From sequence record PX880101.1: a stretch of 64,000 nucleotides of DNA; one strand, 5' to 3'. Positions 931 to 20,597 of this stretch are shown piece after piece. The position numbers were made by a program, and so were the translations under genes. Numbering within the stretch: the stretch's first letter is position 1; each line of letters starts with the position of its first letter. This stretch comes from a phage. Below the pieces are notes generated by a model, which was not told the DNA's origin, ran no database searches, and saw only the letters and a list, made by a program, of their open reading frames with translations.

Positions 931-3354
931 ATGAGCATGTGGTCGTTCGATTTTGAGTCATCCGGTTTGCTGGAAGACCCAGATCTTTATTATCACTGCG
1001 GTCTGTTTAAAGAGCTGAATAAGAACCGTTTTATGCTGTTCCTTCCTCTAAATGACCGCACACACTACTCCGAGGAGGATATAGAAAAGGCTAAGAACTT
1101 CATTCTGGCAAAGAAAACTCTTTATAAAGATTTTGAAGTTCGCATAGCAGATTTTTCGGAGTTGGAAGGTTGGCTTACAGGCAATTCCGACTGGTCACCA
1201 ACAGCTTTGAACTGCCATAACTGCTACAGTTATGACTTTATGCTGATGGAGAGATTGTCCGGTATTCATTTTGATATGTTCCGTGATCCTAAATGCATGG
1301 GGACTATCAACGACCACCAGGTTAACCTGTTTGATACGTTGGCGATGAGCCGAATTTTGTGGCCTGATCGCCCTCTACCAAAAGGTTGTCCGGACGCTGT
1401 ATTCAACCCGGTTACTAAGAAAATGCAGCCTGTTGGTCCTCACGGCCTTATGGCATGGGGCTACGCCCTTGGTAACCAGAAAGTTCAAATTGATGACTGG
1501 CGCGATCTTCCGTTGTGGAAGTATGTGGATCGTGTATTCGAGGACGTTATCATCCAGGAGCTGCTCTGGAAAGAGCTGGTAGCGGAATCAAAAGGTGTAT
1601 TCTACGGCAAATCTGACATGCAGAACTTTATGTACGATCCTGCCAAAGAGAAGCCGAAAGGGTTCAAGAAGATCACCTGGAAGAACGCATTACGCCGGGG
1701 TATGCTGCAGCACTTCCTGATGGAGCTGCAGGCCCGTCAGGGTGTATATTTCGACATAGATGGAGCTATTGCTTTACGTGACCGTTGTGATGCGTGGATG
1801 AAAGAGATCGCTGATCGTGTTGAACCTCAACTTCCTTTAAAAGAGTTGTCAATGTCTCAGCGGCCCAAGTTCCCTGAAAAGCCGTTTAACCAAGATGGGA
1901 CAATCTCCAATAATGGTTGGAAATGGTTAAAAGATAAGCTTGGCTATCCTGTGGACATGAGCGCTTTAGAGTTCAAAGCCCCACCTAAGCGAGCATTTAC
2001 CTCCACAGGGGATGTCAGTAAGATGGGGATAAAATGGTGTGAAGAGATGGGCTGTAAAGACCCTGATAAGATGGCTGATTTCTTGAGGGGCTATATTAAG
2101 GGCACCTCCACACCACAACCTTTACCTAAAGAGCTAATGGATCAGGCAATAAGTGATCTACAGCAGAAGCGAATGCCTGACTGCAAGATACCTATGAAAA
2201 TCAGCAATCAGGACGACATTAAGCGATACCTGATCAGTGCTGGTTGGCTTCCGACAATGTGGAGAACTAAGGATGTAACTAAAGACAGCAAGAAGAAAGC
2301 TCTACCTGATGCAGATGTTGATGCACGAGTATATGCATATATGGACGAGCTTTTAGAGTCAGAGTATTGTGACCTGATTATCAACTTCTGGAACAAAACT
2401 GATGCTAAGTTCCAGACAACCGTGCACAAGTTCCGAAGCTTTCCTAACTCCGAAAGGATTAAAAAGGAAGTATTCGGGAAAATACGTAGAAAAGCCAGGG
2501 CACTTATTACTTCTCCGCAACTGAAAGATACGTTTGGACACCTATGTCCGAATCTTGAAAAATTGAACGGAGAGATGGCTAAAGATATCGTCTTGTGGTT
2601 ATCCTTGCGAAACCGCAGATCGGTCCTTGATCCAATCAAGGAGGATAAGGTTGATACTGGTCTTCTTAATCACCCACGTTTGAAGATTGACCATAAGCTT
2701 CCTGCTAAAAGTTCTGGATTAACAAACACTTCCCGACAGAAACACAGTATTTGTGCGAACATGCCTAAACCATCTCCTAAAGTGGTTATGGGTAAAGAGA
2801 TGCGTAGTCTGTGGGGTGTTCCTCCAGGATACTTTGAGATTGGTATTGACGGGTCCAACTTAGAGCAGCTTATCGGGGCTTGGGGTGCCTTTGAGTTCGA
2901 CAACGGCTTGTATTATGATGTTGTAAGTAACGGGGACGCACACCAAAACAATGCTGAGGCATATACAAAAGTAGCAGGTAGAGAGGTGTCTCGTAACGAC
3001 GGTAAACCTATCACGTATGGGGTTATGTATGGGGCACAAAAAGATAAAGTTGCAGATATGCTGGACATCTCTCCAGAGTTGGGACAAAGGGTAATCGATG
3101 CACTCTGGGATGCCAACCCAGGTCTTAAGGGGCGCAAAGAGGATCTGGAGAAATTCTGGGAAGCAACAGGTAAGAAGTTTATCTACTCTTTTGATGGTCA
3201 TGCTATCTGGACCCGATCTAAACACTCTTTACTTAATGCATACCAACAAAATGGCGGTGCATCGTTGTGTGACTTAGTTGGAATACTCATGCACCACCAG
3301 ATGGTGAAGCGTGGGTGGTACGATGAAGGTGTTCGTCGTATTATTTATTACCAT
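931..3354 (+). CDS. DNA polymerase family A, exon 1 (3'-5' exonuclease plus polymerase motifs A and B)
   Basis: FDFESSG (Exo I), IDGSNLEQL (motif A), KPITYGVMYGA (motif B), NAYQQNGGASLCDL (helix before motif C); the unspliced frame ends IIYYH-K-stop at 3355-3360, before motif C is complete. Confidence 0.85.
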
Positions 3355-3630
3355 AAATAACATTGTGGCTTCATAGAGTAATCTATGTCGAATAACCTCT
3401 TTAACTGCGGGAAGCCTAAACCTTATGGCAAGGTAATCCGCAACGAAGCGCTCAAAAGAGCGAACGCTCAGAGGCCATTCCGAAAGGAAGTAGACCAGCA
3501 AGTGCGGTCGAAATGGGAGGATTCCTGTGGTTGCTTATCATAGGAATATGAGATGGTCCGATCCTACGTGAAAACGTATGGCTATGCACGTAAAGGTGCG
3601 GGGTAGCTTAACGACCTACCTGAACTATTG
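3355..3630 (+). other. Candidate group I self-splicing intron without ORF, inside the DNA polymerase gene
   Basis: Follows exon base U (3354) and ends in G (3630); GTGG at 3365-3368 can pair with exon end CCAU; GNRA-capped hairpins at 3372-3387 and 3478-3489; R-like UCAGAGGCCAU (3468-3478) and S-like AGAUGGUCC (3551-3559). Confidence 0.55.
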
Positions 3631-3984
3631 GATGAGTACCAACTTCAAGTCCCTGACACACCGAAGTATAAGACTGTGTACACCTTCGACACAATCGAAG
3701 AACTGGAAGCATTTAAGGCAGAGCAGGAGGCCAAACTTCATGTGTTCGACGGTCATAAGTACAAAAAGGCACGCAAGGATGAGGACGGAAACGAAGTGGT
3801 TGACAGAGACGGAAACACGGTGTACGATCCTATCCTGAATGATGACGGAAAGCTTGAACTTATCTGGAGCCCTGTGGGTGAAATGGTGGTGCATTGCTTC
3901 TGGCAAGCTTCTAAAATGATGGGCGTCCCGTTCCAGATCACAGGTGAATACTTGTGTGGTCGTAATTGGGGTGATTGTCACTAA
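3631..3984 (+). CDS. DNA polymerase family A, exon 2 (motif C Asp-Glu through conserved C-terminus)
   Basis: No ATG (only in-frame TTG at 3628); frame starts DEYQLQV, completing YH|DE motif C, and ends GRNWGDCH, like the T7 gp5 and Klenow C-termini. Confidence 0.7.
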   Translation, partial: DEYQLQVPDTPKYKTVYTFDTIEELEAFKAEQEAKLHVFDGHKYKKARKDEDGNEVVDRDGNTVYDPILNDDGKLELIWSPVGEMVVHCFWQASKMMGVPFQITGEYLCGRNWGDCH

Positions 3985-11466: not shown

Positions 11467-11799
11467 ATGGTAACATTAGAAAGACGTAAAGCTATCGCCG
11501 CCACACTGGCAGACATCTTTTGGGATTGCAACTTAAAAGATACCAGAAATTGTGGCGCATCTGTAGATGTATTATTCCCACGGCCCACCATTGTTGCAAT
11601 GGGAAACCTGTTAAACGTAGTGTACGGAGCATGGGACAAAGAAGGTGGATTCTATATCTGGCAACCTGACTACAGAGCCTGGAAAGAGGTAAGGGGTGCG
11701 GTTGACTTTGGGCCTGCAAGTGCTAAGATGGATGGCTGGGAAATTTATGTTGGAAACGACATGAAGCTGAAAGGCGAGATTGTTTACTGGTTACCTTAA
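11467..11799 (+). CDS. hypothetical protein
   Basis: ORF in co-oriented array. Confidence 0.5.
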   Translation: MVTLERRKAIAATLADIFWDCNLKDTRNCGASVDVLFPRPTIVAMGNLLNVVYGAWDKEGGFYIWQPDYRAWKEVRGAVDFGPASAKMDGWEIYVGNDMKLKGEIVYWLP

Positions 11800-11819
11800 G
11801 AAAGTGCAGGAGATAAAGT

Positions 11820-12065
11820 ATGAACAAAGGGTGGACATTTGTAGACGGAGTTAAAAACATGCCTCTAGGAAAGTATATCGTAGCCATGGCTGATGAGGAT
11901 GGCAATGTAGATTTCGGAGCTTGCGAGGTTGTTCTTGCAGGATCTGGTAACTATGTGAGTAAAACCGGGATAATTAACGGTCAGTTCTACTTTGATCACA
12001 ACCCTGTTGTAGCGTATATGGCTATGCCAGAGTTCAAGTTCCCAAAGGAGGGTGCAGATGTTTAA
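11820..12065 (+). CDS. hypothetical protein
   Basis: AGGAGA SD. Confidence 0.5.
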   Translation: MNKGWTFVDGVKNMPLGKYIVAMADEDGNVDFGACEVVLAGSGNYVSKTGIINGQFYFDHNPVVAYMAMPEFKFPKEGADV

Positions 12066-12255
12066 GCTTAAATCTGCATGGAACATCGCTGTGGGGGACG
12101 AGATCCGTATCCCAGGTGGAAAGACCATTATGAAGATATCTCGTATTGAGTACGAAGGTGACCGTGTATTCCACATCTTCGCAGAAGATGGTCGAGAAAT
12201 TTATATACAGGCAGGTTCTCACATTTATATCCGTAAGAAAGGGGACGACAAATGA
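12058..12255 (+). CDS. hypothetical protein
   Basis: ATG after AAGGAGGG. Confidence 0.5.
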   Translation: MFKLKSAWNIAVGDEIRIPGGKTIMKISRIEYEGDRVFHIFAEDGREIYIQAGSHIYIRKKGDDK

Positions 12256-12581
12256 CAGAGATCATCATTTCAACTGCAGGGTATGTGTTCCTGACAATCA
12301 TTGCACTGACTATTTTGGTGACAGTGTATGGGTTTGTTATCCTTCCTATCCTTGAGACATTTAGTTTGTGTCGGTGTTGGAGAAAAGCTTACGGTCCACA
12401 ACCATGGAAGGACTGGCCCCACCTGGTGCGCTTAGCGTTCTCTTATGCTTACGATCACTCCAGTAGTGCATGCATAACCGGATACCACGCCCACAACTGG
12501 AGCTGGGAAGGATTGAGGAAATGGAATGTTACAAAGACCATACCTCTACGCATGTACAAACCTAAAAACAAAGACAGCTGA
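12252..12581 (+). CDS. hypothetical membrane protein
   Basis: Hydrophobic N-terminal segment; ATGA coupling. Confidence 0.5.
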   Translation: MTEIIISTAGYVFLTIIALTILVTVYGFVILPILETFSLCRCWRKAYGPQPWKDWPHLVRLAFSYAYDHSSSACITGYHAHNWSWEGLRKWNVTKTIPLRMYKPKNKDS

Positions 12582-13598
12582 TACTTGAAAATTCCTGGCA
12601 TATCAAGTGTAAGGGGGATTTCTAAAATGGATTTCCTCCTTTTGATATTTCACCGGGCTGGATATTTTAAAATTCTTAGAAAATCAGAAAATGGATCGAA
12701 AACTAAAATGGATTTTTCAGAGTAGGCGCGACAAGCTGAATAACTCATCCTATCGTTTGCACCATATTCCAGGCCACCATTATAGATTTCCCACACATGC
12801 TAACCTCCCTCTACTAGAACTTCCTCCACTTGCCCTTAACCTTCTATGGTAACAATCTAACCACTATCTTGAAGTTGCGGTGCAGCTTTCCAAGTACTCG
12901 ATCTACTTTTCATTTCATGGCTTGGATTTTCTGAAAATTTTTCTCGATAAATTTCTCAGTACTCGATCTGTTTTTCGTTTTCTGAATCGGATTTTCTGGA
13001 AATCGTTCCGGATCTCGACCTGAAATTTTTGGGGACGAAATCGATTTTTCGTTTTCAGAAATGGATTTTTAAAATTTCTATATGGGAATATTTTATGGGA
13101 TACTGTTTTATAGGAAATTGTTACGGAGGGTAATTAGCATGCTAATTAAATTTATTAAATGCGAGGAGTTCTCATTTAGAATTTTGAATGATAATCATTC
13201 TCGTTTGCAGAATAACGGGCAGGCCCGGTGATTGTCTCCCGGCCCCTGTTGCCCCGGCTTGTTATTATAGTATCACACAGGACAAAGAAAGCAAGGATTT
13301 TTTGCATAAATTTTTAAATGATAATGATAACCGTTCTCATTTTATGCAGCGCCCATCCCCGGTGGTTGTCTCCCCCGTCACCGGTGCCTGCCGTCCTTTC
13401 GATAGGTATATTTTGCCACCTGGCGGGGCCGCTGTCAACACTTTTCAAAAAAAAATTTCTAACCTGATGCGCTGACCGCTGCAACCTGGCGGGGCCAGCC
13501 TGGCAGGGCCTAACTGACCAGGTAGGAGATAATGAAGGCTTGCAAACCTGGTGGGCCTATGCTATAGGATAGGTAACAATTGAAGAGGAGGTACAAAA
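12582..13598. repeat. Repeat-rich non-coding spacer (AAATGGATTT-type motifs, about 45-bp degenerate direct repeats, two about 60-bp tandem units)
   Basis: No convincing ORF; direct repeats read at 12620-12720, 12895-13075, 13185-13250 and 13313-13375. Confidence 0.55.
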
Positions 13599-13775
13599 AT
13601 GGAAGGTAATATGATCCCCCTGGAAAATGTAGCTATTAATGACACTGAGGCTATCGCCCTGGTTGAAAAGGCTATGGCGGGAGCGTTGGAACATAAAGAA
13701 GAGTACGAAAAAATGATGGTTAACCTGGCAGGGGCGGCGGCTGGAGAATTCTACCCAAAAAATAATTTTAACTAA
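13599..13775 (+). CDS. hypothetical protein (58 aa)
   Basis: ATG after GAAGAGGAGGT; not in the supplied ORF track. Confidence 0.4.
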   Translation: MEGNMIPLENVAINDTEAIALVEKAMAGALEHKEEYEKMMVNLAGAAAGEFYPKNNFN

Positions 13776-13778
13776 TGG

Positions 13779-13807
13779 TTGACAGCTCGGACAGTTCTTG
13801 TTATTCT
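13779..13807 (+). promoter_or_regulatory. sigma70-like promoter TTGACA-N17-TATTCT
   Basis: Hexamers read directly. Confidence 0.45.
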
Positions 13808-13860
13808 TATCCTCGCAAGGTGAACAACACCACACCAATTAACAGAGAGGATAAAAAATC

Positions 13861-14058
13861 ATGAACGCCTACGGAATTAAAGTACGTCGCAACACTCGCC
13901 AGGTGGTCACCAATCAAGTGATTTGCCGGGTGGATGTAACCATCAACAACGGGCAAGGCCTTTATAAATTTCGTCGCGGTCATAGCTATACCCTGCAGCA
14001 GCTTAACCGTTGCGCCCTGACAAAAGGTCAGATCAACCACTGGTTTAATAAAAAATAA
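13861..14058 (+). CDS. hypothetical protein
   Basis: AGAGGATAAAAAATC-ATG leader. Confidence 0.5.
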   Translation: MNAYGIKVRRNTRQVVTNQVICRVDVTINNGQGLYKFRRGHSYTLQQLNRCALTKGQINHWFNKK

Positions 14059-14061
14059 ATA

Positions 14062-14090
14062 TTGACACGTAGTCTGACACAAAATATACT
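14062..14090 (+). promoter_or_regulatory. sigma70-like promoter TTGACA-N17-TATACT
   Basis: Consensus hexamers. Confidence 0.55.
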
Positions 14091-14122
14091 TAAATCACAA
14101 AAGACACTAAGAGGATAAAATC

Positions 14123-14521
14123 ATGAAAACTACAACCTTTAATTTTGACAATGCCGACTTCTCTTTTTCTGATGTTAAGAATTGCCGCCGTGATCGTGGA
14201 TTTTACAAGGCTTATAATCTGGTTGGCCTAGACGATGATAATAATTTGCACGAAGTAGCGGAGATCCGGTACTATGCCGCCGCCAGCGGTAACACTAACT
14301 ACTGCGTTTTTTGGATACACGACAACAAGAATAATAAGTACGGTTATACTGGTGGCAAGGCGAGCGGTCACGGTTATGATAAGGCCAATGCAGCACTTGA
14401 GAGCGCGTTAAATGCTATGGGGATCACTGCCAACGGCTGGATCTATGAAGATGAGTTTTTGTCAGCACTTGCTGCCCACCTGGGGTATAAAAAGCACATT
14501 GTGACATGCGCCCACGAATAA
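14123..14521 (+). CDS. hypothetical protein
   Basis: AAGAGGATAAAATC-ATG leader. Confidence 0.55.
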   Translation: MKTTTFNFDNADFSFSDVKNCRRDRGFYKAYNLVGLDDDNNLHEVAEIRYYAAASGNTNYCVFWIHDNKNNKYGYTGGKASGHGYDKANAALESALNAMGITANGWIYEDEFLSALAAHLGYKKHIVTCAHE

Positions 14522-14531
14522 AAAAAAATTA

Positions 14532-14559
14532 TTGACACGCTGCAAAATTAAAGTAAACT
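14532..14559 (+). promoter_or_regulatory. sigma70-like promoter TTGACA-N16-TAAACT
   Basis: Hexamers read directly; followed by leader hairpin GGCGGGAA-TGT-TTCCCGCC. Confidence 0.5.
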
Positions 14560-14608
14560 AGACACAAAAGGCGGGAATGTTTCCCGCCAACACAAAGGAA
14601 AAAAGATC

Positions 14609-15004
14609 ATGAATAAGAACGTACGCCGCATCATGAACGAACTGGCAAACGATGAAAAAATTATTGATATGCATTTGGTAAACATTTGCCGCCGTTGTGT
14701 AACATATAACAACCGCGCCGCAAAAGCGCGTGAGATGAACGCAAAAGGCACCTTAAAGCCCTTTCAGGTGGTTGTAAAATCTATAACCAGTGCAGCAGAC
14801 CAGGCGCATGACCACAACAACGGGAGCACTAATATTGATCCGTCTTACGTAATGAAACGGATCCGGACTTGCAAGAATAAAGAGCAGGTGTATAACGTCA
14901 TAGATTGGTTGGACTCCCTGGGCGATGTGGTTTATAATAGGTTTTCTGCAGCTATCGAGATCCAGCTTGACAGACTGGACGGGAAAGTACTGAAAACTTA
15001 CTAA
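14609..15004 (+). CDS. hypothetical protein
   Basis: ORF after promoter and leader hairpin. Confidence 0.55.
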   Translation: MNKNVRRIMNELANDEKIIDMHLVNICRRCVTYNNRAAKAREMNAKGTLKPFQVVVKSITSAADQAHDHNNGSTNIDPSYVMKRIRTCKNKEQVYNVIDWLDSLGDVVYNRFSAAIEIQLDRLDGKVLKTY

Positions 15005-15051
15005 GTTTATTTTTAGATGGCCTTGACGCCAGGGCCATCAATAAAGTAAAC
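15005..15051 (+). promoter_or_regulatory. Conserved 45-bp intergenic cassette, copy 1 (T-tract, inverted repeat GATGGCC-N10-GGCCATC, embedded TTGAC and TAAAGT/TAAACT)
   Basis: Near-identical copies at 15626-15670 and 19364-19408; each follows a stop codon and precedes an SD. Confidence 0.5.
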
Positions 15052-15083
15052 TAATCCCAGTTAAGCTAAAAGGAGGCTTGAAG

Positions 15084-15203
15084 ATGAGCACTACACGCCA
15101 GCACACAAAGGTAACTATTATCGTTTGCATCATTGGTTATATCCTGGCGCAAATGTTGATGGGTAGCGCCAACGGTGTCGCAAAATTTTTCTTAAACTTT
15201 TAA
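15084..15203 (+). CDS. hypothetical small membrane peptide (39 aa)
   Basis: AAAAGGAGG SD; hydrophobic core. Confidence 0.35.
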   Translation: MSTTRQHTKVTIIVCIIGYILAQMLMGSANGVAKFFLNF

Positions 15204-15231
15204 TTGACAAGCTAACTTAGATCGGTATACT
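15204..15231 (+). promoter_or_regulatory. sigma70-like promoter TTGACA-N16-TATACT
   Basis: Consensus hexamers. Confidence 0.55.
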
Positions 15232-15281
15232 AAACACATCAACGGGAAAACTTCCCAGAACACACAAAAGGAGAAAACACC

Positions 15282-15623
15282 ATGACCACTATGACCGCCG
15301 CAGAAAAAGCTATTCAGATCGCTGCCCTGAAAAAACAGATCGCAGACCTTGAGAATAAGATCGATAACTTTGAAATCGACGAGGACAAGTACGACGAAAA
15401 CTATGATGAATGGTTAGACGAGATCTACGGCGAAATTATGATCGGAAACATTTCTTTTCTTCCGTCGCGTATCCTCAAGGAGCTAGATCCTATCGCTTAC
15501 CGCTGCGGATTTAGCGACTACATCGACAGCCTGGATATTGAGGACGATGAAGAATACCAGGAATTACAGACAGAGTTGGAAGAAGCAAAAGAAGAGCTTG
15601 CGGAGCTGGAAGAAAACGAGTAA
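15282..15623 (+). CDS. hypothetical acidic coiled-coil protein
   Basis: AAAAGGAGA SD; D/E-rich heptad-like sequence. Confidence 0.55.
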   Translation: MTTMTAAEKAIQIAALKKQIADLENKIDNFEIDEDKYDENYDEWLDEIYGEIMIGNISFLPSRILKELDPIAYRCGFSDYIDSLDIEDDEEYQELQTELEEAKEELAELEENE

Positions 15624-15625
15624 GA

Positions 15626-15670
15626 TTATTTTTAGATGGCCTTGACTCCAGGGCCATCAATAAAGTAAAC
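15626..15670 (+). promoter_or_regulatory. Conserved 45-bp intergenic cassette, copy 2
   Basis: ATTATTTTTAGATGGCCTTGACTCCAGGGCCATCAATAAAGTAAAC. Confidence 0.5.
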
Positions 15671-15712
15671 TTTATACTGTTAACACTGAACTAATGCATA
15701 GGAGTTAAAACC

Positions 15713-15958
15713 ATGGCAGCACTAATCACTAAATATTACGCCCCTACCAACACCAAAAGCGCCCGTATCATGGTAAAAGGCTTCGGACGTAAAAAGGTTT
15801 ACACCTGGGATTATGCCTTAGACACGGAAGACAACTACACCAACGCGATGACAGATTTTATTAATGAGCTGAACACGCGGATCTTGACAAATTATAAAAT
15901 TACCGATATTGCCTATATAGGGGAAGGCGGGATCTGTTTTGTCGGTATCGTCAAATAA
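15713..15958 (+). CDS. hypothetical protein
   Basis: TAGGAGTTAAAACC-ATG. Confidence 0.5.
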   Translation: MAALITKYYAPTNTKSARIMVKGFGRKKVYTWDYALDTEDNYTNAMTDFINELNTRILTNYKITDIAYIGEGGICFVGIVK

Positions 15959-16034
15959 ACTGTTTTTTCGGTGGTCCTGGTAGCAGGGCCATCTATAAAG
16001 ATAGTTTATCAATACAATGAAAGGAGAAAGTAAC

Positions 16035-16388
16035 ATGATCAGTGGGGCAAGTTTTATTATTGGCGCTATTGCTACGGCTTTAATTGTAAACAAGATCCAA
16101 TCTAAAAACGAAAAAGAGAGCAACGCGCTCACAGAATACCCATTTTGGATATTCAACGACAATGAAGACTACATTATCAAGTACAAGAATGAGAAGGGCG
16201 ACCAGGTAACACCGCGACCGATCCCGGCCTACAAGATGCAAGAAACACTATACCGCCTAAAGGCTGGAGGCGCAAAAATCGTAGACTTTTGGGGATATGA
16301 TTGCAAGGATCAGGAGGTTATAAAACGGCGTATCCGGGCTATTCAGGCCAATATTGAAGTTAGCAAGGGGGGAATATATGAAGATTAA
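16035..16388 (+). CDS. hypothetical membrane protein
   Basis: ATG after GAAAGGAGA; hydrophobic N-terminus. Confidence 0.5.
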   Translation: MISGASFIIGAIATALIVNKIQSKNEKESNALTEYPFWIFNDNEDYIIKYKNEKGDQVTPRPIPAYKMQETLYRLKAGGAKIVDFWGYDCKDQEVIKRRIRAIQANIEVSKGGIYED

Positions 16389-16575
16389 TTTTGAGAAGAT
16401 TGTAAAGCGATCTCATGATTCCGAAGAGCTGCCGGAACGCCGCCAGCGTAACAATAAACTGAATAAGCCAAAAAGATTTGGGAAGATCTGGCGGAATCAT
16501 TATGATCGTAAATTGCCGGGCCTCCTTTTGGAACGTGAACGGCAGGCGGAACGATACCGCCACAAAGGCAACTAA
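16378..16575 (+). CDS. hypothetical basic protein
   Basis: ATG after AAGGGGGG; R/K-rich. Confidence 0.4.
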   Translation: MKINFEKIVKRSHDSEELPERRQRNNKLNKPKRFGKIWRNHYDRKLPGLLLERERQAERYRHKGN

Positions 16576-16583
16576 CAACCAAC

Positions 16584-16611
16584 GCCCCGCCATCGTGCGG
16601 GGCTTTTTATT
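16584..16611 (+). terminator. Rho-independent terminator
   Basis: GCCCCGC-CATCGT-GCGGGGC followed by TTTTTATTT. Confidence 0.6.
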
Positions 16612-16755
16612 TCTACCCTACGAATAGCGCCCCTGGTTGGCCCTGTAAGCGCCAAAAAGGCCCCACCTATGCAATCGCCCCCTTTAACCTGAAAACATCG
16701 CTTAGGGCCGTTTTATGGCGTTAAAAATATCATTGACAGTGATTTTATTTAAAGC

Positions 16756-16783
16756 TTGACATCTTAAACAGGTTAGCTATACT
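16756..16783 (+). promoter_or_regulatory. sigma70-like promoter TTGACA-N16-TATACT
   Basis: Consensus hexamers. Confidence 0.55.
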
Positions 16784-16815
16784 AACCACATCAAAGAGAG
16801 AAAGGAGTAAACGCC

Positions 16816-17076
16816 ATGCGTAAATTAAAAAATTTTGATAAAGTTGATGTTGTCCTGAATAATTTTTACTACTGCAACAACAAGGCCATTTGGTGGCGTG
16901 ATAGTTCCACCGATAAAGTCAAGGCGCGCTTTCTCCAGGGGCACTGGCAAGGCCGCCCAGTGATTAAAATCATGGGGCAATTGGTAGCGTTTAAAAATTG
17001 CCGCCGTGTTGATGACGTTGAGGAGATTTTAAACATTTTGCGCCACAATAATTTAAAAAATAGTGTTGACAAGTAA
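16816..17076 (+). CDS. hypothetical protein
   Basis: AAAGGAGTAAACGCC-ATG. Confidence 0.5.
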   Translation: MRKLKNFDKVDVVLNNFYYCNNKAIWWRDSSTDKVKARFLQGHWQGRPVIKIMGQLVAFKNCRRVDDVEEILNILRHNNLKNSVDK

Positions 17077-17093
17077 ATCTCAATAAGTATAAT
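17066..17093 (+). promoter_or_regulatory. sigma70-like promoter TTGACA-N16-TATAAT
   Basis: Consensus hexamers; followed by leader hairpin GGCGG...CCGCC. Confidence 0.55.
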
Positions 17094-17150
17094 TAAACAC
17101 ACAGGCGGGAAAACTTACCGCCACTAACAAAGAAAACAGGAGAAAATATC

Positions 17151-17774
17151 ATGACCACCGTTAACATTACCACAGGTTACAATTTATCTTTCGACGTGCT
17201 GACCGACGAACAAAAAGAAAAAGCCATTGAAATGGTACGCGAAAGAGAAGAACACAGCGGGGATGACTTTTTTGCAGAAAGTGTAATTGAACACTACAAA
17301 GAATATATCTTTCCAGAGTACGGCCTTGAAGATACCGAAGTACATTGGTCCGGCTTTTGGTGCCAGGGTGACGGCGCGTCAATCAGTGCTGAAAACGTGG
17401 ATTTAGAAAAATTTTTGCGTAAAGTAAAGGCCCTGACCAAGTTCCGATCAATTCGTCACTTGTTCGGCACAATGCACGATGGCGAGTTATCAGCCAGTGT
17501 TGAACGCGACAAGTACAGCCATTACAGCCATGAAAACACTGTAAGCGGATACATTGATACCACCTGGCTAGATCTGACCGCCAAACAAGAAAACAAAGTG
17601 GAAGACCTGGAAGAGCTGATCACCGAGACGGTACGGGAGCTATCCCGCAAGGTTTACGTAGACCTGGAGGAGGCCTATCTAGAACAGTTCACTACCGAAA
17701 ACCTGATCGGCCTTATTGAGGCCAATGATTGGCGGTTTGATGTGGATGAATATGGAGAGATGAGTTTTTCATAA
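17151..17774 (+). CDS. hypothetical protein (207 aa)
   Basis: ACAGGAGAAAATATC-ATG; no motif I can name. Confidence 0.55.
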   Translation: MTTVNITTGYNLSFDVLTDEQKEKAIEMVREREEHSGDDFFAESVIEHYKEYIFPEYGLEDTEVHWSGFWCQGDGASISAENVDLEKFLRKVKALTKFRSIRHLFGTMHDGELSASVERDKYSHYSHENTVSGYIDTTWLDLTAKQENKVEDLEELITETVRELSRKVYVDLEEAYLEQFTTENLIGLIEANDWRFDVDEYGEMSFS

Positions 17775-17865
17775 ATAAAGTGTTGCAATAATCTAAAAAC
17801 CTGCTATATTAAAACTCAAGGGGGGGCAAGACGTTTGCCCCACACAAAACAAAGAGGAAAACATT

Positions 17866-18246
17866 ATGAAAAACACTACTAAAGCTATTGACACCGTTAT
17901 GTTTAACCTGGTTACCTTTCGCGAGGATATGAAAGATCTTCCACGTGAAACAGTGTGCGATCACATTGAAAACTATCGCAAACTAATCAAAGAGTTGCCT
18001 TTAAAACGTGACCAGTATGCGGCTAACGCTATGCTCAACGCCATGATCAAAAAGATGATTCAGTGTGATTTAACCCTGGCCTATGATTATGCAGGTGGTC
18101 GTTTTGCAGTATACAATCAGCCCGTGCCTGGTATGAGCACCACCGAAGAATTGCACGCGTTAAATCTGAAACAAGATGTATGGGATAACATGCCCCGCGT
18201 GGTGGTGTGGGCAGAAAGCGGAAAGATTTACGGCGATAATTTTTAA
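17866..18246 (+). CDS. hypothetical protein
   Basis: AAGAGGAAAACATT-ATG after promoter TTGCAA-N16-TATATT and GC hairpin. Confidence 0.55.
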   Translation: MKNTTKAIDTVMFNLVTFREDMKDLPRETVCDHIENYRKLIKELPLKRDQYAANAMLNAMIKKMIQCDLTLAYDYAGGRFAVYNQPVPGMSTTEELHALNLKQDVWDNMPRVVVWAESGKIYGDNF

Positions 18247-18310
18247 TCAGGTAACAGGCGGCATATTTGCCGCCTTATTGTTAAACAGAACTGCAAAAGA
18301 GGTACATAGA

Positions 18311-18682
18311 ATGGAATTTATTATTTTGGCTGTAGTAGTTGCCTTGTTCAACGCCTGGATCGCTGGCAAGATAGGTAGATCCGCTTTTCTATGGTTTGTT
18401 ATATCTATTTTCCTGGGAGTGGTTGCAACTATTGTATTGGTTATCCTTGCAATTGTTGACAAGGGCGATAATAGAAAGGGTAAAGTGTTTTCCGACCTGT
18501 ATGACGCACAAACGTTTGTCAACGCCTATTATAGTGATCTTCCAGTCTCCCTACGCTGCAGCCTGGCACAACAGGTTTTTGATGAGGCTAAAACCAGAGA
18601 CCAAGCCCATGAGATATGTTTAACTGAAGCGGATCGCCTATTTGAGAGGAATAGAAAATATGTGGACCAGCCGTTTAAATAA
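18311..18682 (+). CDS. hypothetical membrane protein (two predicted TM helices)
   Basis: ATG after AAAGAGGTA; hydrophobic N-terminus. Confidence 0.5.
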   Translation: MEFIILAVVVALFNAWIAGKIGRSAFLWFVISIFLGVVATIVLVILAIVDKGDNRKGKVFSDLYDAQTFVNAYYSDLPVSLRCSLAQQVFDEAKTRDQAHEICLTEADRLFERNRKYVDQPFK

Positions 18683-18900
18683 CGCCACGTTAATTAATCC
18701 CTTTAGTGAAGATTTGAAGCCAGCCGCCTGGCGTGACGGATTCAATAACGAACGCTTTATTTTCAGGCCTGATCTTGAGGAATTTTATAACAATGGATCG
18801 AACAACAGCGGAGATAATTTTTCTTGTGGTGTGCGTGGTGATAGGACTCCTGGGGGCCATTGTAAACCACGTCACTACTAACAGGAGGGAAGGGGGAGAC

Positions 18901-19020
18901 GATGACAACCAAGGATAAGCCATGCGCTGATAAGGTGCGCCGTGTTATGGTATGGCTTGAGATTATCGCCCTTGAAATATTGTTAGGCGTAGGGATGTAC
19001 TTTATCGCTGTAAGTAACTA
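18901..19020 (+). CDS. hypothetical small membrane peptide
   Basis: ATG after GGGAAGGGGGAGA; the region 18640-18920 has overlapping alternative frames. Confidence 0.3.
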
Positions 19021-19025
19021 AGAGC

Positions 19026-19060
19026 GGCCCCCGATCATGGGGGCCTATCTTTTAAAAAAT
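19026..19060 (+). terminator. Rho-independent terminator
   Basis: GGCCCCC-GATCAT-GGGGGCC followed by a T-rich run. Confidence 0.55.
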
Positions 19061-19159
19061 TTTTCTTCCGGGGTGTTGCAATCCGGTCCGGAATGTGGAT
19101 AATAACAATCAACGGGGAGCTAATCCCCACCACCACAAAAACCAGAAAGGAGAAACAAA

Positions 19160-19360
19160 ATGAGCAACAATATCCGCGTTATTAACTTCAAAAAAGAAGA
19201 AAAAATTGCCGTGCTGATTGACGGTCAAGAAATCTTCAAGGGCGACTATGAAGATCATCAAACGGCGATTAGTATCACTCGCGTGATTGGTTATCATAAT
19301 TTCTACCCCCAAGGCGCTGAGGCAGCAGTTAAACGAATCAAAGAGATTGTAGGCCTGTAA
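19160..19360 (+). CDS. hypothetical protein
   Basis: GAAAGGAGAAACAAA-ATG. Confidence 0.5.
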   Translation: MSNNIRVINFKKEEKIAVLIDGQEIFKGDYEDHQTAISITRVIGYHNFYPQGAEAAVKRIKEIVGL

Positions 19361-19363
19361 AAT

Positions 19364-19408
19364 TTATTTTTAGATGGCCTTGACTTCAGGGCCATCGATA
19401 AAGTAAAT
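19364..19408 (+). promoter_or_regulatory. Conserved 45-bp intergenic cassette, copy 3
   Basis: TTATTTTTAGATGGCCTTGACTTCAGGGCCATCGATAAAGTAAAT. Confidence 0.5.
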
Positions 19409-19444
19409 TTAAACCCTGTTAAAATACCACGCAGTTAACAAGGA

Positions 19445-19753
19445 GTGATAGACATGTTTATCCAGGCTAATAATCTTTATTTCTTTGATGGTCAGATCGT
19501 AGATGGTGTGGAAGTGGAGATCACCGGGTGCCCTGGCGGTCAGGCTATGACTTTTCGGAATAATGCCTTTGATGATTCTCATATCGTTATGAGAATGGAA
19601 GTTACGAAGCTGGACGACAAGAAAACACTTATTGACTATTCTGTGAAAGATCATCCAGACTACCGCATGATCCATGGTGATTTGTGCATTGTTGACCGTG
19701 ACAAGGTGGGCGGCATTGTGATCGCTATTGTGAACGATGTTTTCTCAAACTAA
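19445..19753 (+). CDS. hypothetical protein
   Basis: AACAAGGAGTGATAGAC-ATG. Confidence 0.55.
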   Translation: MIDMFIQANNLYFFDGQIVDGVEVEITGCPGGQAMTFRNNAFDDSHIVMRMEVTKLDDKKTLIDYSVKDHPDYRMIHGDLCIVDRDKVGGIVIAIVNDVFSN

Positions 19754-19846
19754 TTTCAGCAGGCGATTTTATGAAAGTCAAACTATATTACCTTAATGAG
19801 CTTAACCCCCTTGCCCAGGTCCGCGCCCTAGCTAATACCTTGATTT

Positions 19847-20110
19847 GTGAGAAATCTGTATATTGTGTTGAGCTTAACACGTCTCAAAGGTGGTTACTTT
19901 GACATCCATGCTGCAATCAACGGCCTGAATATGGAATTTATACGCTTACGTAACAGCCGCCGGAATCTGGCAAGAATGGAACAAGATCCGGCCCACCTTC
20001 GCAAGCTGGTTATTGAAAATCATCTGATGTTTAATGCCGAGGGGGATTATTACCATTTTCACCGCAAACGCTGGTACCGTGGCGGCAATACAGGCAAGAA
20101 TGCAAAATAA
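19847..20110 (+). CDS. hypothetical protein (start uncertain)
   Basis: ORF; no clear SD at the first ATG. Confidence 0.3.
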   Translation: MRNLYIVLSLTRLKGGYFDIHAAINGLNMEFIRLRNSRRNLARMEQDPAHLRKLVIENHLMFNAEGDYYHFHRKRWYRGGNTGKNAK

Positions 20111-20146
20111 GGCCCCTAGCAGGGCCTGCAGCAATATAATCACATA

Positions 20147-20180
20147 AAGGCCATGCGGTTGCATGGCCTTTATTATTTTG
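20147..20180 (+). terminator. Rho-independent terminator
   Basis: AAAGGCCATGC-GGTT-GCATGGCCTTT followed by ATTATTTT. Confidence 0.55.
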
Positions 20181-20312
20181 GCGTTACAACGGCATACGGG
20201 GCGCTTAAAAAATTTTTAAAGAAGTACTTGCATCATTCCCGACAATATGGATAATAAGAGTTGTCGAGGGGGAGGCCCCCAATCGTTGACCAGATAGATA
20301 GGAGTTAAAATC

Positions 20313-20597
20313 ATGGCTATTGTTACCGCTGGCGATGTAGTAGAAATGGAAGCAAAATACTTAAAAGCGGGTATGCACATCCTACGGAATGATCAAGAGT
20401 TATTATTAACGATGGTTGACTATAATCACGGCCAGGATTATCCAAGCATCGACTACTTTTTTGAGTATGTTGATGAAGAGTTGAAAGAGGATGAGGCCTA
20501 TTGCGGTGAGTTCTGCAACTTCTTTTGTCCTGATGAGGTTGTAAAGGTTATTTATCAACCTGGCGTAGCTTTCCCGCTGCACGCTATCAATAAATAA
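20313..20597 (+). CDS. hypothetical protein
   Basis: TAGGAGTTAAAATC-ATG. Confidence 0.5.
   Translation: MAIVTAGDVVEMEAKYLKAGMHILRNDQELLLTMVDYNHGQDYPSIDYFFEYVDEELKEDEAYCGEFCNFFCPDEVVKVIYQPGVAFPLHAINK

Follow-up and report, generated by a model that had tools for sequence, protein, structure and literature searches.

What is the function of a short DNA cassette that recurs, nearly unchanged, between the early genes of an rV5-like coliphage? The stretch considered here consists of 64,000 nucleotides (nt) of phage sequence (record PX880101.1) and is referred to below, at its full length, as the window. An earlier note on this DNA had described three near-identical intergenic copies of a 45 base pair (bp) unit with a T-run, a 7-bp inverted repeat and promoter-like hexamers, and had read it either as a promoter overlapped by an operator or as an RNA processing site. 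We found four copies, and we show that what selection maintains in them is an RNA hairpin of the plus strand only. With about even confidence, and arguing from analogy, we favor the interpretation that each cassette is a ribonuclease III (RNase III)-type intercistronic processing and stability signal of the kind known from the early messenger RNA (mRNA) of phage T7.

Four copies of a 53-nt intercistronic cassette

The cassettes form the largest direct-repeat family that a repeat search returned for the window. All four are on the plus strand, between small plus-strand early genes. The stop codon of the open reading frame (ORF) lying upstream marks the beginning of each one, so the observation that every copy follows a stop codon extends to the whole set. 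A degenerate 44-mer representing the near-identical copies matched with 0 mismatches at 15007-15050, 15626-15669 and 19364-19407, with 0 matches expected in shuffles, and the inverted repeat GATGGCC-N10-GGCCATC is exact at 15016, 15635 and 19373 and has 2 mismatches at 15970 (4 matches versus 0.11 expected). The 45-bp unit is therefore real but was drawn too short: the structured repeat covers about 53 nt, from the stop codon to about 4 nt past the end given before. The 7-bp inverted repeat is likewise present, yet it makes up only the core of an upper stem of 10 bp, and a second stem arises where the T-run pairs with the A-rich 3′ part. A diverged copy had been placed at 15962-16000; it does exist, with a full span of 15956-16008. 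From the end of the hairpin to the next start codon the distance is 26-42 nt at all four sites. The next Shine-Dalgarno (SD) sequence, said to be 30-40 nt away, actually lies about 19-32 nt from the cassette end as then drawn.

Cassette 1 occupies 15002-15054 on the plus strand, its first three nucleotides (15002-15004) being the TAA stop codon of the upstream ORF. Its lower stem pairs 15002-15013 with 15043-15054, its internal loop consists of 15014-15015 (UA) and 15040-15042 (AAU), its upper stem pairs 15016-15025 with 15030-15039, and a tetraloop at 15026-15029 closes the structure. The cassette folds at -25 kcal/mol (z-score -7.9) and scores 81.8 bits with covariance model R1 on the plus strand versus 42.9 on the minus strand. 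Cassette 2 (15621-15673, plus strand) has the same architecture, with the upstream stop codon at 15621-15623, the upper stem at 15635-15644/15649-15658, a fold of -21.1 kcal/mol (z-score -6.1) and an R1 score of 81.0 bits. The same plan is seen in cassette 3 (19359-19411, plus strand), where the upstream stop codon is at 19358-19360 and the upper stem at 19373-19382/19387-19396 (-24.7 kcal/mol, z-score -7.4; 79.7 bits). Cassette 4, the diverged copy (67% identical), lies at 15956-16008 on the plus strand with the upstream stop codon at 15956-15958; it forms the same two-stem hairpin with 4 G·U pairs and with compensatory substitutions as compared to copies 1-3, lacks TTGAC, folds at -27 kcal/mol (z-score -7.7) and scores 74.9 bits on the plus strand versus 32.9 on the minus strand. 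A covariance model built from the four copies recovers those four alone in the window, the next match scoring 16 bits. The genome-wide count that the earlier note had proposed gives the same number, since the covariance model finds four copies and no others in the complete 134.8-kb genome of Escherichia phage A6-1.

Selection maintains a plus-strand RNA hairpin

Read as plus-strand RNA, the cassette contains a lower stem of 10-12 bp, a 2 × 3 internal loop (UA on the 5′ side and NAU on the 3′ side), an upper stem of 10 bp (GAUGGCCUUG/CAGGGCCAUC, which includes one U·G pair) and a tetraloop. The internal loop is UA/NAU in copies 1-3 and UC/UAU in copy 4, and it is at the center of the helix in all copies; the total helix of about 20-22 bp amounts to about two helical turns. 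Across the four copies, fold energies are -21 to -27 kcal/mol on the plus strand, with z-scores of -6 to -8, and -10 to -17 kcal/mol on the minus strand, and covariance-model scores are 75-82 bits on the plus strand and 33-44 bits on the minus strand. Although only 67% identical, copy 4 adopts the same fold with the best energy of the four.

Covariation supports the helix at two levels. Among the four paralogues, 95.5% of pair cells are paired and 4 compensatory pairs occur, as compared to 34-55% paired and 0-1 compensatory pairs in slid controls, in which the stem partners were shifted by 1-3 columns. For orthologues, the region was taken from 22 further genomes (23 in all) and aligned with MAFFT blind to structure, giving 89 sequences, 57 of them distinct. 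In these 57 sequences, pairing holds in 94.2% of cells overall and in 99.5% of those in the upper stem, versus 37-54% in slid controls, and compensatory double changes affect five lower-stem pairs in 48 cells. The lower-stem U·G at columns 12-51 is retained in 56 of the 57 sequences. One-sided changes in the upper stem either give G·U or restore Watson-Crick pairing in 48 of 48 cases, leaving 3 unpaired cells. RNAalifold independently predicts the identical hairpin of 10 + 10 bp, and only about half the sequences form the two outermost pairs. Changes that preserve a pair as G·U would be A·C mismatches on the opposite strand, and therefore the selected object is the sense-strand RNA.

Nucleotide diversity (π), computed among 18 genomes, is 0.0097 in the upper stem, 0.049 in the lower stem, 0.043 in the internal loop and 0.217 in the tetraloop; the corresponding values are 0.038, 0.027 and 0.146 for codon positions 1, 2 and 3 and 0.088 for other intergenic DNA. 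The upper stem is thus under tighter constraint than second codon positions, and the tetraloop varies freely. Folding the whole window in 60-nt sliding windows was uninformative, with 392 windows at or below -17 kcal/mol, and was replaced by folding each intergenic region separately. Within the early cluster, this produced long two-part helices at the four cassettes only; the remaining spacers hold promoters, short hairpins in 5′ untranslated regions (UTRs) or terminators. We conclude that the feature maintained by selection is an RNA hairpin on the plus strand only.

Promoter and operator readings of the same letters

The promoter-like hexamers of cassette 1 (TTGACG, 18 nt, TAAACT; 15023-15052, plus strand) fall inside this hairpin: TTG belongs to the upper stem, AC to the tetraloop and TAAACT to the 3′ side of the lower stem. 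Equivalents occur at 15642-15671 and 19380-19409 and are absent from cassette 4. In a promoter scan, copies 1-3 read TTGAC(G/T), 18 nt, TAAA(C/T)T, a match of 9/12 that equals the scan threshold (36 ± 6 chance sites per 16 kb), whereas the phage's own predicted promoters match at 10-12/12 with spacers of 16-17 nt.

The main proposal of the earlier note had been a promoter with an operator for a dimeric regulator, which as a DNA-level reading means that the regulator would bind GATGGCC-N10-GGCCATC and occlude the -35 element. The 7-bp repeat is perfect in copies 1-3 and encloses TTGAC, and its arms are highly conserved, all of which speaks for an operator. The pattern of change speaks for RNA instead: two of the seven positions in the left arm of copy 4 are changed, with only RNA G·U pairing preserved, and the 48 one-sided changes among orthologues break DNA symmetry and keep RNA pairing. 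Moreover, the pairing runs 3 bp into the supposed spacer and resumes in a second, covarying 10-bp stem, which an operator does not need, and the signal is strand-asymmetric, the minus-strand model score being about half. Because copy 4 keeps the hairpin without TTGAC and loop insertions stretch the spacer, an operator is not supported and a promoter is not required; with the T-run and the "-10" covarying as a stem, pairing confined to one strand, and hexamers at 9/12 around an 18-nt spacer, the idea of a promoter with an overlapping operator is not supported as the main function, although copies 1-3 may still have promoter activity. We regard the operator as highly improbable.

A second DNA-level reading comes from the elements termed PeSLs (promoter-early stem-loop). 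These are cassettes with an AT-rich tract, a sigma-70 promoter and a stem-loop overlapping the -35 or -10 element, located between the stop codon and the SD sequence of small early ORFs (PMC2839356), and they mediate shuffling in T4-type phages (PMC2839356, PMC4122927). By this analogy, copies 1-3 would be working sigma-70 promoters that restart the next gene, the stem-loop would attenuate or end upstream transcripts, and the repeats would shuffle early genes. The promoter of such a composite would consist of a T-rich UP-like tract, TTGAC at -35, an 18-nt spacer and TAAAYT at -10; we consider the composite unlikely, if a serious candidate. The anatomy agrees with the published description (PMC2839356), the scan does detect the hexamers in copies 1-3, and in those copies the -35 is conserved at positions 1-5 and free to vary at position 6. 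The cassette and the predicted promoter at 14532-14559 (rV5 P194) also have the -10 string AAAGTAAACTA in common, and the single chimeric cassette of phage phiWec189 and one IMG/VR contig, described below, is a recombination deletion of the kind that shuffling would leave. On the other hand, a 9/12 match with an 18-nt spacer is at chance level and falls short of a near-consensus sigma-70 promoter of the TTGACA-N17-TATAAT type, copy 4 retains the hairpin with no -35, and loop insertions in copy 3 of SYGMH1 and copy 1 of an IMG/VR contig bring the spacer to 19-20 nt. Covariation joins the "UP" tract and the "-10" in a stem, a pairing that a promoter does not need, and the 3′ arm lies within the would-be spacer yet is the most conserved part. 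There are also just 4 copies per genome and no U-tract for termination, and the element is missing from the 33 promoters listed for rV5. It is likely that the promoter-like hexamers are incidental or secondary.

A candidate RNase III processing signal

The alternative named in the earlier note, an RNA processing site, fits what was observed: an intercistronic plus-strand hairpin, about two helical turns long, in which an asymmetric internal loop is central. This is the architecture of the T7 early RNase III sites. RNase III requires two helical turns, an 11-bp helix between cut and loop, and a distal box of UA/UG about 10-11 bp from the cut and adjacent to the loop-closing pair (PMC1540722); its substrates are about two turns long, and where internal loops are present only one strand is cut and a protective hairpin stays at the 3′ end (PMC1540722, PMC3867540). 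In the proximal box, position 1 is G-C, position 2 is A-U or U-A with no G/C, position 3 is A-U, and position 4 is A-U, U-A or non-Watson-Crick (PMC1540722). Within E. coli transcripts, the regions between genes are enriched in RNase III sites (PMC6212723).

We propose that host RNA polymerase would transcribe each cassette within a polycistronic early mRNA, in which the cassette would fold into a hairpin of about 22 bp starting at the stop codon of the upstream gene. Host RNase III would bind the two-turn helix and cut one strand, because the internal loop is central in the helix. The predicted cut is NAU|AAAG, that is, after the conserved NAU of the 3′ loop strand, which places it after 15042 in cassette 1, 15661 in cassette 2, 15996 in cassette 4 and 19399 in cassette 3. 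Cleavage would separate the cistrons, and the upper stem-loop would remain as a 3′ cap shielding the message upstream against exonucleases. Early gene modules are also deleted by recombination at the copies, which are near-identical direct repeats.

The boxes agree with this proposal in part. Copies 1-3 have U-A and U·G as the second and third pairs below the tetraloop, which is the canonical UA/UG distal box. With the register inferred from analogy to the T7 site R1.1, the proximal box reads U-A at position 1, A-U at position 2, G-C at position 3 and an A·A mismatch at position 4; the A·A is non-Watson-Crick and comparable to the U·C of natural R1.1, and the A-U at position 2 is acceptable. 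Several points weigh against processing by RNase III. Proximal-box positions 1 (U-A) and 3 (G-C) differ from the optimal G-C and A-U, and copy 4 has UA/CG in place of UA/UG together with a G·U at proximal-box position 2. Because a literature search for the mapping of Vequintavirus transcripts and their ends found nothing, cleavage is predicted from architecture only. RNase III by itself also fails to account for the near-invariance of all 10 upper-stem pairs, which suggests a sequence-specific partner, gene conversion between copies or a second function at the DNA level. Finally, the first position of the tetraloop is a purine in every sequence and copies 1-2 show no change in the AC of TTGAC, which would fit a -35 element too.

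In a combined interpretation, the 53 nt would be dual-coded: in DNA a weak sigma-70 promoter with its UP, -35 and -10 elements in the hairpin arms and loop, in read-through RNA a processing site for RNase III or a phage protein, and in the genome a set of repeats that shuffle early modules. We judge this to be quite improbable. In that case, transcripts reading through would be cut and capped at the very points where new ones start, and the cassette would be the Vequintavirus-specific equivalent of PeSLs, its stem-loop serving processing and not termination.

A different RNA-level role would be that of a binding site for a sequence-specific protein, which could be encoded by the phage or be RNase III binding without cleavage, and which would control the translation or stability of the neighboring early genes. 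The upper stem is conserved in sequence beyond what pairing demands (π 0.0097), two U·G wobbles and the four base pairs that border the internal loop do not vary, as is typical of protein-recognized RNA, and the G-C at proximal-box position 3 could weaken RNase III binding (PMC1540722). We nevertheless find this role distinctly improbable, given that there is no candidate protein, that the flanking genes are all without assigned function, that folding of the intergenic regions shows neither the SD sequence nor the start codon sequestered by the hairpin, and that the freely varying tetraloop argues against recognition of the loop.

Another use for a stem-loop at such a position would be as a Rho-independent terminator or attenuator. 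The record of phage Murica (KT001917) annotates 45-nt "terminator" features at cassettes 4 and 3, UUUA directly follows the lower stem in copies 2-4, and PeSL stem-loops with no classical tails lowered read-through in a reporter (PMC2839356). The terminator scan flagged the cassettes on neither strand, in line with the previous statement that they are not canonical terminators on either one. The G+C-rich upper stem is followed by AAUAAAG and no U-run, the tails after the full hairpin are AAUCCC (copy 1), UUAUAC, UCAAUA and UAAACC, and the base of the full hairpin is rich in A-U and G·U. Furthermore, genes continue straight downstream, canonical terminators at 16584 and 20144 close the operons, and the rV5 and Alma annotations do not label these sites as terminators. 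A terminating role is, in our estimation, very unlikely.

Recombination between cassettes

In phiWec189 (locus L008) and in one IMG/VR contig (locus L003), the pair of genes that separates cassettes 1 and 2 is gone together with the promoter found there, and one chimeric cassette stands in their place. Its flanks are 95% identical to copy 1 on the left and 95% identical to copy 2 on the right in phiWec189, the corresponding values for the IMG/VR contig being 88% and 98%, and the alignment of phage ECP26 likewise starts at cassette 2. On these alignments, recombination between copy 1 and copy 2 is the event that deleted two genes in some phages. The orthologue alignment also contains loop and flank variants that are patchily common to cassettes 1, 2 and 3 of one genome: Alma, naswa and CarlMeissner each have the tetraloop ACAC in copy 1 as well as in copy 2, and a left flank typical of copy 3 is found at the copy 2 position in SYGMH1, NHEP1 and phiWec193. 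Such patchy sharing suggests gene conversion between copies.

Distribution and genomic setting

The window comes from a Vequintavirus, one of the rV5-like coliphages. Its sequence identity is 99.8-100% to Escherichia phage A6-1 and 90-97% to about 120 further records. Cassettes occupy the same positions in all 23 Vequintavirus genomes examined, and we found the cassette in this genus only, in 121 phage records (mostly with three copies detectable by BLAST) and two IMG/VR contigs. E. coli genomes gave no cassette match, and Justusliebigvirus PaulScherrer, from the sister subfamily, has no cassette copy and carries a different cassette family. An IMG/VR scan for CAGGGCCATCNATAAAG returned 18 loci, of which the 15 that are not Vequintavirus fail the covariance model. 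No Rfam family was found in a scan of 12-21 kb, the sole overlap being rhtB small RNA at 23.1 bits versus a gathering score of 55 (E = 2.6). A literature search for the cassette sequence as 12-14-mers found no paper containing it, and in the rV5 paper and its Table S4 the cassette is absent from the listed promoters (33) and terminators. A search for relatives of a neighboring 81-residue protein gave only two IMG/VR loci, and its tblastn matches outside the genus are in unrelated genomes. A "repeat_region" in the record of phage isim proved to be an unrelated repeat inside a coding sequence.

Two further kinds of element were considered for the cassette. A mobile element resembling a miniature inverted-repeat transposable element was rejected because there are four copies in a single orientation at the same places in every genome. 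A single-stranded DNA hairpin serving replication was considered unlikely because the elements sit exactly between stop codon and SD sequence in the sense orientation.

The cassettes lie in an early cluster of small genes with no assigned function that is rich in near-consensus sigma-70 promoters and canonical terminators. All copies are inside predicted transcripts in the sense orientation, with predicted early promoters upstream and terminators downstream. A predicted strong early promoter at 14532-14559 on the plus strand (TTGACA, 16 nt, TAAACT) equals rV5 P194 of Table S4 and heads an operon that reads through cassette 1. A second, at 15204-15231 on the plus strand (TTGACA, 16 nt, TATACT), is rV5 P192, is annotated in NC_011041 and lies between cassettes 1 and 2; predicted transcripts from it read through cassettes 2 and 4. 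Together, transcription from 14532 and 15204 is predicted to pass cassettes 1, 2 and 4 as far as the canonical intrinsic terminator at 16584-16613 on the plus strand (GCCCCGC..GCGGGGC followed by TTTTTATTTC), which ends the operon with cassettes 2 and 4 and is annotated in Murica and Alma. Cassette 3 is upstream of a terminator-like 13-bp hairpin followed by TATTTTGG, located by the terminator scan at 20144-20183 on the plus strand, downstream of the genes that come after the cassette.

The operon of cassettes 2 and 4 includes, at 16378-16575, a gene for a 65-residue protein of the T7 gp1.1 family (PF08200, 42.4 bits versus a cut-off of 21). The terminator-promoter spacer that follows this gene (16576-16815) is an insertion hot spot, where MiataMamis carries three extra small genes (positions 3102-3687 of locus L009) and S127 BCL3 carries one (positions 3256-3426 of locus L010).

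A second cassette family in the same region pairs a near-consensus promoter with a short G+C-rich 5′-UTR hairpin of the GGCGGGAAnnTTTCCCGCC type. It has at least 3 copies in the window, at 14532-14590, 15204-15260 and 17066-17125, and 6-9 copies in PaulScherrer with the core CATAGGGCGGGAAATGGTTTCCCGCC (positions 11560-20390 of locus L042). This family probably stabilizes the 5′ ends of early messages. Upstream of the cassettes, 12726-13138 is a stretch of about 410 nt with no ORFs that folds extensively and has T-rich, tandem-like repeats of about 65 bp at 12884-13069 (families D2/D4/D6); this stretch is a possible counterpart of the box marked "non-coding" on the map of rV5, perhaps an origin or an iteron region. 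The G+C-rich intergenic region at 13476-13598 (123 nt) folds at -39.6 kcal/mol. At 17796-17868 there is an intergenic hairpin, GGGGGGGCAAGACGUUUGCCCC, with a sub-threshold Rfam match to Clostridium-PBP RNA (33.6 bits versus a gathering score of 94.4, E = 0.17) that is probably due to chance. Lastly, 17 "Campylobacter phage" records (GenBank MG0656xx, UNVERIFIED) are 92-97% identical to this coliphage region; their host attribution is probably wrong, or they are coliphage contaminants.

Implications and comparison with known systems

With this hairpin, a large group of coliphages in therapeutic use, which includes rV5, FV3, Murica and BASEL Bas48-56, gains an unannotated structured RNA motif that covariation supports. 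The finding corrects two "terminator" annotations in Murica and supplies exact coordinates for the predicted cleavage. If the processing reading is confirmed, RNase III punctuation of early host-polymerase transcripts in the style of T7 would be found in large myoviruses also, and such signals would at the same time be sites of recombination through which the set of early genes is remodeled.

For comparison, five T7 early RNase III sites (R0.3, R0.5, R1, R1.1 and R1.3) were folded with the tool used for the cassettes. In these sites an asymmetric internal loop separates a lower stem from an upper stem that is 9-13 bp long (9-10 bp in 4 of 5), contains G·U and ends in a loop of 3-5 nt, and UAU or AAU stands 3′ of the upper stem in four of them (R0.3, R0.5, R1 and R1.1). 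The R0.5 hairpin begins at the upstream stop codon and the R1 hairpin a few nt past it. Like the sites of T7 and T3 early mRNA, the Vequintavirus cassettes are a family of similar elements between early cistrons read by host polymerase, with a hairpin that starts at or next to the upstream stop codon, the same stem-loop-stem plan and about two helical turns. They also share the UA/UG distal box directly under the loop-closing pair and a 3′ loop strand that ends in AU, as it does in 4 of the 5 T7 sites. T7 gene 1.1 is directly downstream of RNase III site R1.1, and in the Vequintavirus, as in T7, a gene of the gp1.1 family (PF08200) is in the same operon as cassettes. In contrast to the T7 sites, with which there is no sequence homology, the cassette has a smaller internal loop (2 × 3 versus about 4 × 5), a longer, A-U-rich lower stem and non-canonical proximal-box positions 1 and 3.

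RNase III-type sites of about two turns with internal loops are known from other phages and hosts as well, among them lambda sib, the lambda N-leader and the early mRNA of the Bacillus phage SP82, where cleavage sets the stability of the message; the SP82 sites are near-identical repeats between early genes. The PeSLs of RB49/phi1, T4/PST and KVP40/nt-1 resemble the cassettes in being conserved elements between stop codon and SD sequence among small early ORFs of a plastic region, in combining an AT-rich tract and -35/-10-like hexamers with an overlapping stem-loop, and in inter-copy recombination that deletes the genes between. PeSLs differ in having near-consensus promoters with 17-nt spacers, short stems of a G-run and a C-run, and dozens of copies, whereas the Vequintavirus cassette has a marginal promoter match that is missing in one copy, a two-part covarying helix of 20-22 bp and four copies. 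Set against these systems, the cassette itself is most likely new, and the class to which we would assign it, that of phage intercistronic processing hairpins, is already known.

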